IMG/VR virus record: IMGVR_UViG_2684622552_000007
Span: 1-35,384 of that record
Length of the DNA: 35,384 nucleotides
Source of the DNA: a virus
Lineage: Duplodnaviria > Heunggongvirae > Uroviricota > Caudoviricetes
Direction: 5' to 3' (one strand)
Part shown: piece by piece, positions 4,600 to 8,724 of the stretch
How positions within the stretch are numbered: position 1 is the stretch's first letter
How the letters are laid out: every line of letters begins with the position of its first letter
The notes under the pieces: generated by a model
What the model saw: the letters and a program-made list of their open reading frames with translations, nothing else
Told to the model about the DNA's origin: nothing
Database searches by the model: none
Program-made: the position numbers and the translations under genes

Positions 4600-4695
4600 A
4601 ACGCCTCCAGTTGTTTCTTTGCTTGTAGTGGTTTACTGAATTTGGCCACCTGAACAGAGGTGATATGCTCACCTCAGAACATTACAGGTGCCTCA

Positions 4696-5970
<1,275 letters not shown>

Positions 5971-6122
5971 GGGTAACTCCTTATATTTGATTGCATAACT
6001 AAAATGCCTCTCGTGAAGCATTATTGGTATGCATATAAAAAGGCCCTCACACTGGAGGGCAAAGAAGATTTCCAATAATCAGAACAAGTCGGCTCCTGTT
6101 TAGTTACGAGCGACATTGCTCC

Positions 6123-6150
6123 GTGTATTCACTCATTGGAATGAATACAC
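6123..6150 (-). repeat. Perfect 9-bp inverted repeat (GTGTATTCA-10 nt-TGAATACAC) between the membrane gene and cIII-like
   Basis: Seen directly in the sequence; potential RNA hairpin or protein-binding palindrome in the leftward transcript. Confidence 0.4.
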
Positions 6151-6174
6151 AGTGCAGTGTTTATTCTGTTGTTT

Positions 6175-6205
6175 ATGCCAAAAATAAAGGCCGACTATGC
6201 GGCCT
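6175..6205 (-). terminator. Intrinsic terminator after the membrane-protein gene (minus strand)
   Basis: Minus-strand AGGCCG-CATAGT-CGGCCT followed by TTTATTTTT, starting a few nt after the stop at 6210. Confidence 0.6.
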
Positions 6206-6209
6206 GAAA

Positions 6210-6659
6210 TTACTTAACCAATGATGCTGCATATTCGATAAGGTAAAGTTTTGGGGCCAGCCAAATTTTTAACCAAGTCATATTGGTTACTACACCAATA
6301 ATAAAAATCCCCCACAGAGTCAAAACTCCAACCAATGGCATGATAAGAAGATTAATATCACCTTTGCTATCCCAAACCATTGTCGGCCTGTATTTGGGAT
6401 TTCCTTTCTCCCATGAATATCCTTCATCACCGATTTTACCTGTCTCAACTCTTTGGCACTGCTTCTTCATAAACCAGAAAACCAGTGGGATTGTTAGAAT
6501 GGCTATTAATGTTTTAATCAGACTGTCAACCATATTCCATAGCAGCAACTGATGAACAACATCAGGAATCTGTGCTTGGCTAAATGAAACAGCCGCGTCT
6601 ATTCCATTACTGGCTTTTTGCAGTAGTTCTACGAGAATCTTGTTTGCTTGTTCTTCCAT
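6210..6659 (-). CDS. Two-helix membrane protein (149 aa) in the sieB position; candidate superinfection-exclusion/abortive-infection protein
   Basis: Hydrophobic segments LIKTLIAILTIPLVFWF and INLLIMPLVGVLTLWGIFIIGVV; lies between ral-like and cIII-like as sieB does in lambda. Function inferred from synteny only. Confidence 0.45.
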   Translation of the reverse strand: MEEQANKILVELLQKASNGIDAAVSFSQAQIPDVVHQLLLWNMVDSLIKTLIAILTIPLVFWFMKKQCQRVETGKIGDEGYSWEKGNPKYRPTMVWDSKGDINLLIMPLVGVLTLWGIFIIGVVTNMTWLKIWLAPKLYLIEYAASLVK

Positions 6660-6717
6660 ATATCACCTTGATTGTAATAAGCATGAAATTATTTACGGCC
6701 AAAAATAAAGGCCACCA

Positions 6718-6918
6718 TCAGGCAGCCTTGTTGTTCTGTTTACCAAGTTCTCTGGCAATCATTGCCGTCGTTCGTATTGCCCATTTATCGACATATTTCC
6801 CATCTTCCATTACAGGAAACATTTCTTCAGGCTTAACCATGCATTCCGATTGCAGCTTGCATCCATTGCATCGCTTGAATTGTCCACACCATTGATTTTT
6901 ATCAATAGTCGTAGTCAT
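6718..6918 (-). CDS. ral: Ral-like restriction-alleviation protein (66 aa)
   Basis: MTTTIDKNQWCGQFKRCNGCKLQSECMVKPEEMFPVMEDGKYVDKWAIRTTAMIARELGKQNNKAA matches lambda Ral by recall; position downstream of N in the leftward operon. Confidence 0.7.
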   Translation of the reverse strand: MTTTIDKNQWCGQFKRCNGCKLQSECMVKPEEMFPVMEDGKYVDKWAIRTTAMIARELGKQNNKAA

Positions 6919-6988
6919 ACGGATAGTCCTGGTATTGTTCCATCACATCCTGAGGATGCTCTTCGAACTCTTCAAATTCTTCTTCCAT
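6902..6988 (-). CDS. Small acidic ORF (28 aa), below track threshold
   Basis: MEEEFEEFEEHPQDVMEQYQDYPYDYDY; GAGGTG SD about 5 nt upstream of ATG 6988; overlaps the ral start by 17 nt. Confidence 0.3.
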   Translation of the reverse strand: MEEEFEEFEEHPQDVMEQYQDYPYDYDY

Positions 6989-7042
6989 ATATCACCTCAA
7001 ATAAGTGGTTTGCTGCGAAAATAAATCCGCTTAAGTTACCTG

Positions 7043-7180
7043 TTATTTATCCCACCAAGTTCCGTATCTATCTATCCAGTTACACCAATCGTCGACACTC
7101 CATTTTGCTGTGTCGCATTTTGGCAACTGGCATGAATATCTACCTTCTTTGTAAAGTCGGCGTTTTACTTTCTTGAGCAT
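7043..7180 (-). CDS. Small Cys-rich ORF (45 aa), below track threshold
   Basis: MLKKVKRRLYKEGRYSCQLPKCDTAKWSVDDWCNWIDRYGTWWDK; GAGGT SD upstream of ATG 7180; directly follows the N stop. Confidence 0.3.
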   Translation of the reverse strand: MLKKVKRRLYKEGRYSCQLPKCDTAKWSVDDWCNWIDRYGTWWDK

Positions 7181-7187
7181 GACTACC

Positions 7188-7493
7188 TCAATCGTAATAA
7201 GCCGGAATTGATTTTCCGCGTTGCTTCTGGCGGCCTGAGCAAGTCACACCCATTTCACTCCGTGGCTTGCTGTAGTAAATACGGTTCTGTTTACGCTCGA
7301 CTTCTTCTGCCTTCTTGCAGCGAAGGCTTCCGAGTGATGCTGCTTTGTCTGCTCTGACGCAACCAGAGAGCTTTAGCGCAATTTTTCGCGCCAGTGCTTC
7401 ATTACTTCGTCGCTCGGCAATAAGTTCTGCTCTGCGAGCTTTGTAGCGGCTTTTTGCTGTACCTTTGGATTCTTTCCAGACTATGGTTACCAT
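7188..7493 (-). CDS. N: N-like transcription antiterminator (phage-21 type), 101 aa from ATG 7493
   Basis: Arg-rich N-terminal motif GTAKSRYKARRAELIAERR and C-terminal YSKP...GVTCSGRQKQRGKSIP resemble N proteins (recall); AAGGAG SD precedes the second in-frame ATG, so the track start at 7523 is probably an extension. Confidence 0.7.
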   Translation of the reverse strand: MVTIVWKESKGTAKSRYKARRAELIAERRSNEALARKIALKLSGCVRADKAASLGSLRCKKAEEVERKQNRIYYSKPRSEMGVTCSGRQKQRGKSIPAYYD

Positions 7494-7603
7494 GATGGTC
7501 TCCTTTAAGTGGCTTTGGCGCATGACGCGTCGAGGTGCTTATCTTCTCGATCGCTGTCTTGCTGCTGCAATTCGCGCCATCCCCAAAACCACTCAAGTTC
7601 TGG

Positions 7604-7643
7604 TCTCAACGGTTAGGTTGAGAGTTCGTCGATGTTAAAGAGC
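7604..7643 (-). promoter_or_regulatory. nutL-like site: boxA (GCTCTTTAAC) and boxB hairpin (TCTCAAC-CTAACC-GTTGAGA) on the leftward transcript
   Basis: Seen directly between pL and N; boxA matches consensus CGCTCTTTA; boxB stem-loop seen directly, assignment to phage-21 type by recall. Confidence 0.55.
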
Positions 7644-7689
7644 CTGCCAATCTGTTCCGTTTGGCTTCCAGCGTCCTGCTGATGGCTTA

Positions 7690-7718
7690 AATTTAAGACT
7701 TCTTAATTTATTGGTCAA
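7690..7718 (-). promoter_or_regulatory. pL-like promoter with overlapping OL operator
   Basis: Minus strand TTGACC-17 bp-TAAATT; operator-like ATTTAAGACTTCTTAAT overlaps, similar to the OR sequence ATTTAAGTGTTCTTTAAT. Confidence 0.6.
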
Positions 7719-7783
7719 GCGTATTTTTGAAGAAAACTTAATTTTATGGGTGTGAATTTAGTTTGTCTTTGATTTTTAACTGG

Positions 7784-7807
7784 AAATAAAAAAGGGGCGA
7801 AAGCCCC
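7784..7807 (-). terminator. Intrinsic terminator immediately after c2 (minus strand)
   Basis: Minus-strand GGGGC-TTTC-GCCCC followed by TTTTTTATTT, directly after the c2 stop at 7808. Confidence 0.6.
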
Positions 7808-8458
7808 TTAAGGAAGGTTTGCTAGCTTGGCATCAACGACAACGCCAATGATTTTACAGTTCCCATTGATTTCAATCATTGGGTATTGTGGATTGAGTGG
7901 TTTCAGGAATTTTCTACCGGCATCAATAACTAACTTTTTGAATGTCGCCTCGTTTTCTCCTTCAAGTTTGGCGACTACCAGCTTTCCATTACGTGGTTCG
8001 ACTTCTGGGTCGACGAGAATAATCATCCCCTCAGGAATACTCAGTCCTGCCGGGGCAGTCATTGAGTCGCCTTTAACGTCGAGCCAAAAAGAGTCTTCAG
8101 AACAATCTACCGTTGTGTCGTACCAGTTATCTATTGCACGCCTATGATATGGCTCTACAGCTTCCATCCAACATCCTGCGCTTACCCAACTAATTAGAGG
8201 ATACGAACCTCTTGGATCATGCCTGCTGTGATAGGCAATGTTTGAAAGACTATCCTCTCCTTTCAACAGGTAATCAGGGGAGCACTGCAAAGCCTTGGCT
8301 AAGGCCAATAGGTTTTCGCCATTGGGCTCAGTTTCAGATCGCTCCCATTGGGAAATAGCAACATTAGACACGCCAACCATCTTGCCAAGGGCAGCCTGCC
8401 TAATCTTGAGTTCTTTTCTGCGAGCGCGAATACGCTCACCCATCAGTTGTGTATTCAT
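7808..8458 (-). CDS. c2: P22-type C2 repressor (216 aa; HTH plus LexA/S24-like autocleavage domain)
   Basis: MNTQLMGERIRARRKELKIRQAALGKMVGVSNVAISQWERSETEPNGENLLALAKALQCSPDYLL ... near-identical to P22 C2 by recall; divergent from cro. Confidence 0.9.
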   Translation of the reverse strand: MNTQLMGERIRARRKELKIRQAALGKMVGVSNVAISQWERSETEPNGENLLALAKALQCSPDYLLKGEDSLSNIAYHSRHDPRGSYPLISWVSAGCWMEAVEPYHRRAIDNWYDTTVDCSEDSFWLDVKGDSMTAPAGLSIPEGMIILVDPEVEPRNGKLVVAKLEGENEATFKKLVIDAGRKFLKPLNPQYPMIEINGNCKIIGVVVDAKLANLP

Positions 8459-8538
8459 AGTTAAGACATCTTAAATAAACTTGACTTAAGATTCCTTTGG
8501 TGGATAATTTAAGTGTTCTTTAATTTCGGAGCGAGTCT
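8459..8538. promoter_or_regulatory. OR operator/pR/pRM region between c2 and cro
   Basis: pR-like TTGACT (about 8481-8486) and GATAAT (about 8503-8508); operator-like near-palindromes ATTTAAGTGTTCTTTAAT and TTAAGACATCTTAA. Confidence 0.7.
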
Positions 8539-8724
8539 ATGTACAAAAAAGATGTTATTGACCACTTCGGAACCCAGCGTGCTGTTGCTAAAGCTCTAGG
8601 CATTAGCGATGCAGCAGTCTCTCAGTGGAAAGAAGTTATCCCAGAGAAAGACGCCTATCGATTGGAAATCGTTACAGCTGGCGCTCTGAAGTATCAAGAA
8701 AGTGCTTACCGCCAAGCGGCATAA
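8539..8724 (+). CDS. cro: Cro repressor (61 aa)
   Basis: MYKKDVIDHFGTQRAVAKALGISDAAVSQWKEVIPEKDAYRLEIVTAGALKY matches P22 Cro by recall; divergent from c2. Confidence 0.8.
   Translation: MYKKDVIDHFGTQRAVAKALGISDAAVSQWKEVIPEKDAYRLEIVTAGALKYQESAYRQAA

Follow-up and report, generated by a model that had tools for sequence, protein, structure and literature searches.

A terminator-bounded two-pass membrane-protein cassette of the Sf6 gp34 family in the early-left operon of a P22-like prophage

Several small phage membrane proteins implicated in the exclusion of superinfecting phages are among the closest described counterparts of a gene that we analyzed in a 35,384-nucleotide (nt) stretch of tailed-phage DNA (IMG/VR record IMGVR_UViG_2684622552_000007, here called the window), where it encodes a 149-amino acid (aa) protein directly downstream of ral. 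SieB of lambda and P22 is likewise small and membrane-bound, and its gene belongs to the pL region of lambdoid phages, but the protein consists of an N-terminal transmembrane (TM) pair and a C-terminal domain of ∼120 aa, whereas the window protein ends in a 23-aa tail. The sieB gene furthermore sits on the opposite strand with its own promoter between N/24 and ral, and there is no sequence or profile similarity between the two proteins. T4 Imm, an early product of a virulent phage, resembles our protein in being a small membrane protein without an enzymatic domain, but has 83 aa and is devoid of the conserved N- and C-terminal segments, predicted to be periplasmic, that we describe below. According to the T4 record, Imm mediates a change in the membrane so that superinfecting DNA stays in the periplasm, and we adopted this as a working model. 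HK97 gp15 and P22 SieA are encoded by single accessory inner-membrane-protein genes, inserted between adjacent phage genes and flanked by terminators, as in our case. HK97 gene 15 is an opposite-strand insertion in the structural module, like two relatives of our gene in Vibrio phage 120E34-1 and in a Pseudomonas lundensis prophage, whereas the window gene is co-oriented with pL and has no recognizable promoter in our scan. The mechanism of SieA has been described (PMC10883804). Pfam and PADLOC gave no link between the window protein and HK97 gp15 or SieA, with which no direct sequence comparison was made. P22 gene 17 and lambda ea10 occupy the same early-left interval as our gene, each followed by a terminator ahead of c3/cIII, but encode unrelated soluble proteins.

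We find that the locus is a 521-bp accessory cassette, composed of a leader, a 149-aa open reading frame (ORF), and a terminator, which is placed at the terminator overlapping the ral stop codon and is located in the N-antiterminated early-left (pL) operon of a P22-like prophage. Its features are as follows.
6210..6659, minus strand: coding sequence of the 149-aa membrane protein, a two-pass inner-membrane protein of the Sf6 gp34 / PHROG 3054 family
6660..6698, minus strand: leader of the membrane-protein gene, 39 nt, carrying an AAGGTGA Shine-Dalgarno sequence
6175..6207, minus strand: intrinsic terminator of the cassette, hairpin 6205-6188 followed by a T-tract
6177..6192, minus strand: downstream copy of the 16-nt direct repeat GGCCTTTATTTTTGGC, made up of the 3' arm of the stem and the T-tract
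6698..6713, minus strand: upstream copy of the 16-nt direct repeat, a perfect match to the downstream copy
6699..6729, minus strand: intrinsic terminator overlapping the ral stop codon, hairpin 6729-6708 (-16.2 kcal/mol) followed by a T-tract

The ORF list and its translation define an ATG start, 6 nt behind the AAGGTGA sequence, and a TAA stop. The product matches phrog_3054 over its entire length (E=3.7e-64; residues 1-149 align with all 137 profile positions) and shares 50% sequence identity with Sf6 gp34 (BLASTP E=2e-40), the first 40 residues being identical, the last ∼22 nearly identical, and the middle divergent. On sequence comparison the protein is a homologue of Sf6 gp34 (PHROG 3054, function unknown) and a new allele of a known, uncharacterized family. 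Both genes have the same post-ral position and the same downstream terminator, bsq4 block (labeled 'bsq4; boundary sequence' in the Sf6 record) and tL2A hairpin, and both proteins have a two-TM architecture, but the central 85 residues (TM1, loop, TM2) are largely different and Sf6 gp34 has 140 aa compared with 149 aa in the window. At the DNA level the two ends of the gene share ∼94% identity with Sf6 gene 34 around an unrelated core. The gene itself is thus mosaic, and the window carries a different allele.

A word-indexed protein search located 516 relatives, none of them with a Pfam domain and every named one annotated as 'hypothetical'. When 1.84 billion representatives of clusters at 50% identity were searched exhaustively with a profile, 2,496 matched at E<=1e-3 and 1,134 at E<=1e-10; nearly all of the best 150 of these 2,496 are 100-185 aa long. 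The window protein has no match in NCBIfam, none in PADLOC at E<=10, and none in Pfam, where 86 diverse relatives gave only scattered TM noise. The PDB returned only transmembrane noise from G protein-coupled receptors (E>0.5), and a fold search against the viral models in BFVD two family members and otherwise noise. We found no study of the family in the literature on Sf6 gene 34, under its PHROG, VOG, or POG identifiers, or in surveys of superinfection exclusion. PHROG 3054 has members in temperate as well as virulent phages, whose hosts are Gamma- and Betaproteobacteria. Its hits in genomes come from Enterobacterales, Pseudomonas, Alcaligenaceae, Xenorhabdus, and others, and the loci whose neighbors were examined look like prophages. 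The window allele occurs in 130 of 5,426 complete Escherichia coli genomes (LF82 and O55:H7 CB9615 among them) as a 'hypothetical protein', which makes this copy an ordinary one; ∼114 further complete E. coli genomes have alleles in which only the ends of the gene are shared. The family is among the larger phage protein families without a domain model, structure, or phenotype, and a function assigned to one member could extend to thousands of phage genes.

Hydropathy analysis (19-residue Kyte-Doolittle windows) places two hydrophobic segments at residues ∼44-64 and 102-126, with mean peaks of 2.0 and 2.45, and values above 1.2 are reached only around residues 37-69 and 99-136. This agrees with the two hydrophobic helices of the initial annotation, which had also called for a TM prediction; two such windows are present in 86 of 86 aligned relatives. 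Residues 1-43 form a conserved N-terminal helix of acidic character that leads into TM1 (∼44-64); a basic loop (65-101) connects TM1 to TM2 (∼102-126), and the C terminus is a conserved tail (WLKIWLAPKLYLIEYAASLVK). We aligned 86 diverse family members and used 49 distinct close alleles for an analysis of selection. Agreement with the family consensus is 64% in the N-terminal 43 residues and 79% in the C-terminal 23 residues, but drops to 33% in TM1, 22% in the loop, which is 10-66 residues long, and 21% in TM2. Invariant or near-invariant positions are Phe-26, Pro-32, Val-34, Gln-37-Leu-38-Leu-39, and Trp-41 in the N-terminal part, and Trp-129-Leu-130, Ile-132, Ala-135-Pro-136-Lys-137, Leu-140, and Glu-142-Tyr-143-Ala-144-Ala-145 in the tail, whose family-wide form, WLKIWxAPKLYLxEYAAxLxK, is nearly invariant. 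The window protein conforms to this architecture, with Phe-26, Pro-32, and the QLLxW motif in its N-terminal helix, two TMs, and WLKIWxAPKLYLxEY at its C terminus. Among the close alleles, the ratio of non-synonymous to synonymous polymorphism (pN/pS) is 0.085 in the N-terminal segment, 0.16 in TM1, 0.30 in the loop, 0.82 in TM2, and 0.14 in the C-terminal segment. With an overall pN/pS of 0.29 and no disrupted copy among the 72 full-length ones in viral contigs, the ORF is a genuine gene under purifying selection.

Counting Lys and Arg in the 12-aa flanks of the helices, we found the loop side to be richer in 75 of 86 members and poorer in 1 (means are 3.8 and 1.6), and the N-terminal segment is acidic (net charge -3.2). 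By the positive-inside rule this excess predicts a cytoplasmic loop, with both conserved ends facing the periplasm. An AlphaFold model calculated with the 86-sequence alignment contains helices at residues 2-68, 106-125, 128-134, and 136-148. Near-invariant ends around a replaceable core form a selection pattern that points to a specific periplasmic interaction. Two antisense ORFs lie on the plus strand, at 6283-6552 (89 codons) opposite the membrane-protein gene and at 6584-6895 (103 codons) opposite ral. We found no sign that either is a gene; the conservation pattern and pN/pS match the minus-strand frame.

The terminator of the cassette consists of the hairpin AGGCCGCATAGTCGGCCT followed by TTATTTTTGG (6205-6178), starts 4 nt past the TAA codon of the membrane-protein gene, and has a folding energy of -9.7 kcal/mol. 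It is one of 9 sites returned by a terminator scan of 5800-8600, compared with 2.3 expected, and a terminator directly 3' of the gene recurs in relatives from unrelated contexts. The 35-kb window contains two copies of the sequence GGCCTTTATTTTTGG and no more (6178-6192 and 6699-6713), whereas 100 shuffles gave an expectation of none. The two perfect 16-mer copies that contain it are spaced 521 bp apart, and the segment between them is absent from lambda. The terminator overlapping the ral stop codon is also found directly after ral in lambda; in phage Gally, it moves with the cassette even though the upstream gene is not ral. In a three-way alignment of the post-ral region with lambda and Sf6, the lambda ral terminator (…GGTGGCCTTTATTTTTGG) continues directly into CATAAATAACAGAATAAACACTGCACTG…, whereas in the window it is followed by the leader, the gene, a new hairpin arm, and the second GGCCTTTATTTTTGG, and only then by the same CATAAACAACAGAATAAACACTGCACTG… as in lambda. 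Because the lambda ral terminator runs straight into the bsq4 block, the segment represents a 521-bp insertion relative to lambda, bounded by the 16-nt repeat. The prophage of O55:H7 CB9615 has the order ral, membrane-protein gene, ea10, cIII, kil, gam, bet, exo, so that we are dealing with an insertion and not with a replacement. Homology between phage Gally and the window begins at the last five codons ahead of the upstream hairpin, which suggests that the transferable unit appears as hairpin-leader-gene-hairpin, at roughly 6175-6734. The GC content of the cassette is 38.6% compared with 47.6% for the window, with ral (41.8%) and the DUF5484 gene (40.6%) being low too.

A moron in the sense of Hendrix and Juhala comprises a promoter, a gene, and a terminator between genes that are adjacent in relatives, and is expressed from the prophage; our cassette is an insertion between sequences adjacent in a relative, has its own terminator, and deviates in base composition. 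The initial annotation had described a gene immediately followed by an intrinsic terminator, a related motif behind ral, and a self-contained cassette. Scan and folding bear out the terminator, the motif proves to be a perfect 16-nt repeat on both flanks, and the 521-bp insertion, the CB9615 gene order, and at least five upstream junctions in relatives support the cassette.

Short repeats also mark the 5' side of the unit. A 21-nt repeat (20/21 identical, 6648-6668 and 6977-6997) covering the ribosome-binding site (RBS) and first codons (GGTGATATATGGAAGAA) is shared by the membrane-protein gene and the 28-codon orf28 equivalent upstream of ral. The family N terminus is mostly MNEQ, and the window allele and Sf6 gp34 have MEEQ. 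As the start region is shared with the orf28 equivalent and reads MEEQ instead of the usual MNEQ, the 5' joint of the cassette may have been made by recombination at this site. The leaders of the membrane-protein gene (6665-6699) and of the DUF5484 gene (7185-7219) are 74% identical over 35 nt (…CTTATTACRATYRAGGT…), and variants of the linker CTTATTACRATYRAGGT also precede the gene in other prophages. The short leader linker looks like a recurring joint between pL-operon modules, which fits the 'boundary sequence' idea of Sf6, and the locus provides a clean example of short terminator-plus-RBS 'linker' sequences at such joints.

Close alleles of the gene reside in the pL operon in 80 of 80 viral contigs, where they combine with four types of N and occur with or without sieB, ral, DUF5484, and ea10. 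The gene-plus-terminator unit is found behind at least five distinct upstream junctions that have only ∼20 nt around the RBS in common, and we detected no conserved partner gene among the neighbors in 33 genome loci and 80 viral loci. More distant relatives occupy other positions. Prophages of Pantoea, Buttiauxella, Proteus, and Yersinia carry the gene right behind holin, endolysin, and Rz, and an Rz-like protein is the -1 or -2 neighbor in 7 of the 33 genome loci. The post-Rz loci of this set are:
L013, 4663-6453
L024, 4270-6384
L027, 4528-6420
L032, 4864-6378

The L024 and L027 genes overlap the Rz stop codon or begin no more than 8 nt from it, have no promoter of their own, and are followed by a terminator-like hairpin; such hairpins follow the gene in three of the four post-Rz prophages. 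Klebsiella phage RothC carries a family member just ahead of the terminase gene. Opposite-strand copies are inserted between the tail-completion and head-closure genes of Vibrio phage 120E34-1 (L047, 3501-3905) and between the portal and terminase genes of the P. lundensis prophage (L020, 6001-6498). Each of the two is followed by a bidirectional terminator, the Pseudomonas copy having an additional terminator ∼220 nt upstream, and both must have their own promoter. In virulent N4-like (Schitoviridae), phi92-like (Justusliebigvirus), Vibrio, and Pseudomonas phages, and also in Rheinheimera phages, the copies are found in early or DNA-metabolism regions. The family is thus common to temperate and strictly virulent phages, and moves as a terminator-bounded unit among at least four kinds of cargo position.

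The initial annotation had placed the gene in the sieB position, between ral and cIII, and suggested a comparison with SieB. The lambda record gives the order N, sieB (opposite strand), orf28, ral, ea10, cIII, and the curated P22 record the order 24, sieB/esc (opposite strand, with an annotated promoter and RNA start), ral, orf78, orf87, 17, terminator, c3. In both phages sieB therefore lies between N/24 and ral and outside the ral-cIII interval, which is occupied by ea10 (DUF2528) in lambda and by orf78-orf87-17 in P22. The window gene is downstream of ral and co-oriented with pL, unlike sieB. The P22 record states that gene 17 allows growth on a Fels-2 lysogen, and Pfam names the family 'Superinfection exclusion gene product 17' (PF17420); this naming may explain the sieB assignment of the initial annotation. 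We found no homology to SieB either: the window protein has no match to PF14163 at E<=1 in a Pfam library in which SieB from lambda, P22, and Oslo scored E=1e-29 to 6e-27 and T4 Imm 7e-16, BLASTP against the lambda and P22 proteins gave noise-level values (E=0.2 and 1.5), and hhalign with the 86-member family alignment returned a probability of 0.1%. Homology to T4 Imm was rejected in the same way (no PF14373 match, hhalign probability 0.2%). Salmonella phage Oslo has an 89%-identical copy of the membrane-protein gene with a genuine sieB directly before it, and the two genes are found side by side in 10 of the 80 related viral-contig loci. The lambda gene ea10 is present alongside the membrane-protein gene in CB9615 and in 29 of the 80 loci. 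The description of the gene in the initial annotation was thus correct, and its sieB analogy mistaken.

To define how the gene might be expressed, we scanned the 39-nt leader between the ral terminator and the ATG codon and found no sigma-70 consensus promoter; a TACAAT hexamer at 6676-6671 has no usable -35 element. A conserved leader promoter was not found among relatives, whose leaders differ between contexts except for the last ∼20 nt. Transcription would start at pL and reach the gene after N-mediated read-through of the ral terminator, which would make it a delayed-early lytic gene, and lysogens may express it weakly as well. Prophage Gally of E. coli LF82 contains a 98%-identical copy (LF82_104 / GALLYPH_30, locus L136, 1611-2060) with an almost identical leader and terminators, for which RNA-seq values, given as log2(fpkm+5), are available in tables S1 and S4 of PMC9928086. 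The Gally copy is at background in stationary phase in lysogeny broth (LB) (4.5 and 3.9). After 6 h in Dulbecco's modified Eagle's medium (DMEM) it reaches 7.1/7.0, compared with 3.9/4.1 for N, 4.0/4.2 for cro, 4.0/3.8 for O, 5.7/6.1 for the upstream gene, and 4.8/4.9 for the downstream gene (PMC9928086). In macrophages the values for the gene and for N are 7.0/7.0 and 6.7/6.6 at 1 h, and 7.0/6.9 and 4.5/5.1 at 6 h (PMC9928086). When we calculated read densities per nt from the raw counts of that study, the Gally copy was 1.3-12 times as dense as N over four DMEM and macrophage conditions; at 6 h in DMEM and macrophages, it had 4-12 times the density of N and ∼5 times that of the downstream gene. 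Overall it amounts to ∼2-9% of the density of c2, and LB counts are too low for comparison. The copy thus forms a local transcript peak in the lysogen that simple read-through does not explain, and the peak would originate either from a weak, condition-dependent internal start or from selective stability of the hairpin-flanked segment. GALLYPH_20-22 and GALLYPH_52, a 47-codon ORF right after Rz, behave like the Gally orthologue.

Our analysis establishes a stand-alone, phage-restricted, two-pass membrane protein with constrained ends, carried as terminator-bounded cargo. We tentatively favor an envelope-level immunity or exclusion role for it, by analogy to T4 Imm and Sp, P22 SieA, and HK97 gp15. 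The protein would act alone at the periplasmic face of the inner membrane, and an infected or lysogenic cell would become refractory to a second attack on its envelope, be it the entry of superinfecting DNA or lysis from without. The cargo behavior of the family, with opposite-strand, terminator-flanked insertions and post-Rz and pre-terminase positions, is typical of exclusion genes and argues for such a role, while the homologues in early regions of virulent phages and the leader without a sigma-70 consensus count for a function in the lytic cycle. For the family at large it is conceivable, if slightly more doubtful, that PHROG 3054 represents a new and widespread group of single-protein envelope immunity effectors, in which the near-invariant ends would engage a conserved component of the host envelope and block DNA entry or envelope attack by a second phage, and in which the swappable TM-loop-TM core would set specificity or partner. 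Several points weigh against an exclusion role. No experiment or homology ties any PHROG 3054 member to exclusion, with PADLOC, Pfam (including Imm_superinfect and SieB), NCBIfam, and the PDB all without a match. The topology was derived solely from the positive-inside rule, and the AlphaFold model consists of helices only and is of moderate confidence (pLDDT 76.7, pTM 0.52). Misson et al. 2023 scored Gally as moron-free in LB stationary phase (PMC9928086), a listing that reflects the use of LB data only and of a 5-fold cut-off (PMC9928086). Finally, tight coupling to Rz in several prophages implies late expression, which would be better suited to a lysis-related role.

This last point leads to an alternative we regard as unlikely, namely that the protein regulates lysis timing or envelope integrity, its periplasmic ends binding holin, spanin, or endolysin in the manner of an antiholin or anti-spanin, and delays premature lysis or modulates the last step. 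The location behind holin-endolysin-Rz in four prophages and the Rz-like neighbor in 7 of 33 loci would be accounted for, as would the promoterless genes of L024 and L027 that abut or overlap the Rz stop and precede a terminator-like hairpin, the RothC copy just before terminase, and the predicted periplasmic location of the conserved parts. The interval between Rz and terminase is however a well-known cargo position, where lambda carries bor, and adjacency to Rz may therefore mean nothing; the post-Rz placement could reflect a link to lysis or merely this cargo position ahead of terminase. The window gene and 80 of 80 close relatives are in the early-left operon, far from the lysis genes, copies in virulent phages are surrounded by early and replication genes and not placed beside endolysin, and no Pfam holin or antiholin family is matched. 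A function as a holin itself is unlikely given the lack of a Pfam holin match, the early-operon position, and the early regions occupied in virulent phages.

We consider it quite unlikely that the protein is a counter-defense factor, which would neutralize an abortive-infection or exclusion system that acts at the membrane and belongs to the host or to a resident prophage. The best-conserved parts are predicted to be periplasmic, whereas known membrane abortive-infection effectors are mostly triggered from the cytoplasmic side; opposite-strand, terminator-flanked copies and the transcript peak in the lysogen better fit a gene that benefits the prophage, and we found no sequence link to known anti-defense proteins. 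This has to be set against the genomic neighborhood, as ral, which counters restriction, adjoins our gene, gene 17 in the ral-cIII interval of P22 ('allows growth on phage Fels2 lysogen') counters exclusion by Fels-2, abc/gam are found in the same operon of relatives, and early regions of virulent phages are the usual place of anti-defense genes. The near-neutral or diversifying TM2 (pN/pS 0.82) would also be in line with counter-defense.

The reading of the initial annotation, a prophage-expressed abortive-infection effector like SieB or RexB that stops macromolecular synthesis or depolarizes the cell upon heteroimmune infection, is improbable: a small membrane protein in a terminator-insulated cassette, with a low local transcript peak in the Gally lysogen and a gene left intact amid decaying neighbors (cIII is split by an insertion sequence (IS) in the window, and ral and bet are frameshifted in CB9615), would suit it, but the protein is neither a SieB homologue nor in the sieB position, co-occurs with genuine sieB, has no cytoplasmic domain to sense infection (its sole cytoplasmic part is predicted to be the non-conserved loop), is common in obligately virulent phages that have no lysogen to protect, and has no PADLOC match.

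The operon around the cassette contains the following features, from the repressor gene to cIII.
7808-8458: P22 c2-type repressor gene
7718-7690, minus strand: pL-like promoter TTGACC-17-TAAATT, from the promoter scan
7604..7718, minus strand: pL-nutL region, with the boxA-like GCTCTTTAACA and a 7-bp boxB-like hairpin (7643-7604) after pL
7188..7523, minus strand: N-like antiterminator, first gene of the pL operon (phrog_271 E=7e-37; PF25694 weak)
7043-7180, minus strand: DUF5484 gene
overlapping the ral start, minus strand: 28-codon orf28 equivalent
6718..6918, minus strand: ral (restriction alleviation; PF11058 E=1.6e-48), 100% identical to lambda Ral
6047..6159, minus strand: conserved non-coding block, found after ral in lambda and after gene 34 in Sf6
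6043..6060, minus strand: second terminator hairpin GCCCTCCAGTGTGAGGGC, whose homologue is labeled 'tL2A, homology to lambda' in the Sf6 record
6003-6022: fourth hairpin AATGCTTCACGAGAGGCATT, just upstream of the cIII start (z-score -3.7, poor T-tract)
5873..5970, minus strand: 5' part of cIII (MMHFQLAGSGVMSAFYPHESELSRRVKQLIRA; PF08134 E=3e-26), cut by an IS element

The boxA-like element and the hairpin at 7643-7604 form a putative nutL, and the N-like product should enable RNA polymerase to pass the terminators on either side of the cassette. The conserved block at 6047-6159 is the homologue of the Sf6 bsq4 sequence. The hairpin at 6003-6022 is missing from the corresponding position of both lambda and Sf6, and an Rfam scan of 5800-8600 gave no match. 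The flanking genes had been recognized as ral-like and cIII-like from the outset, which PF11058 and PF08134 support, cIII being only a remnant. Translation across the junction shows that the remainder of cIII (AKKQLEALCAMK, then stop) resumes at 4623 and overlaps the kil start. The element that interrupts cIII after codon 32 is a 1,249-bp IS3-family element (4624-5872) with 27-nt terminal inverted repeats (81% complementary) and a flanking 3-bp duplication, GCT. It contains orfA (4660-4998) and orfB (5025-5864), and its OrfA presumably resembles that of IS911.

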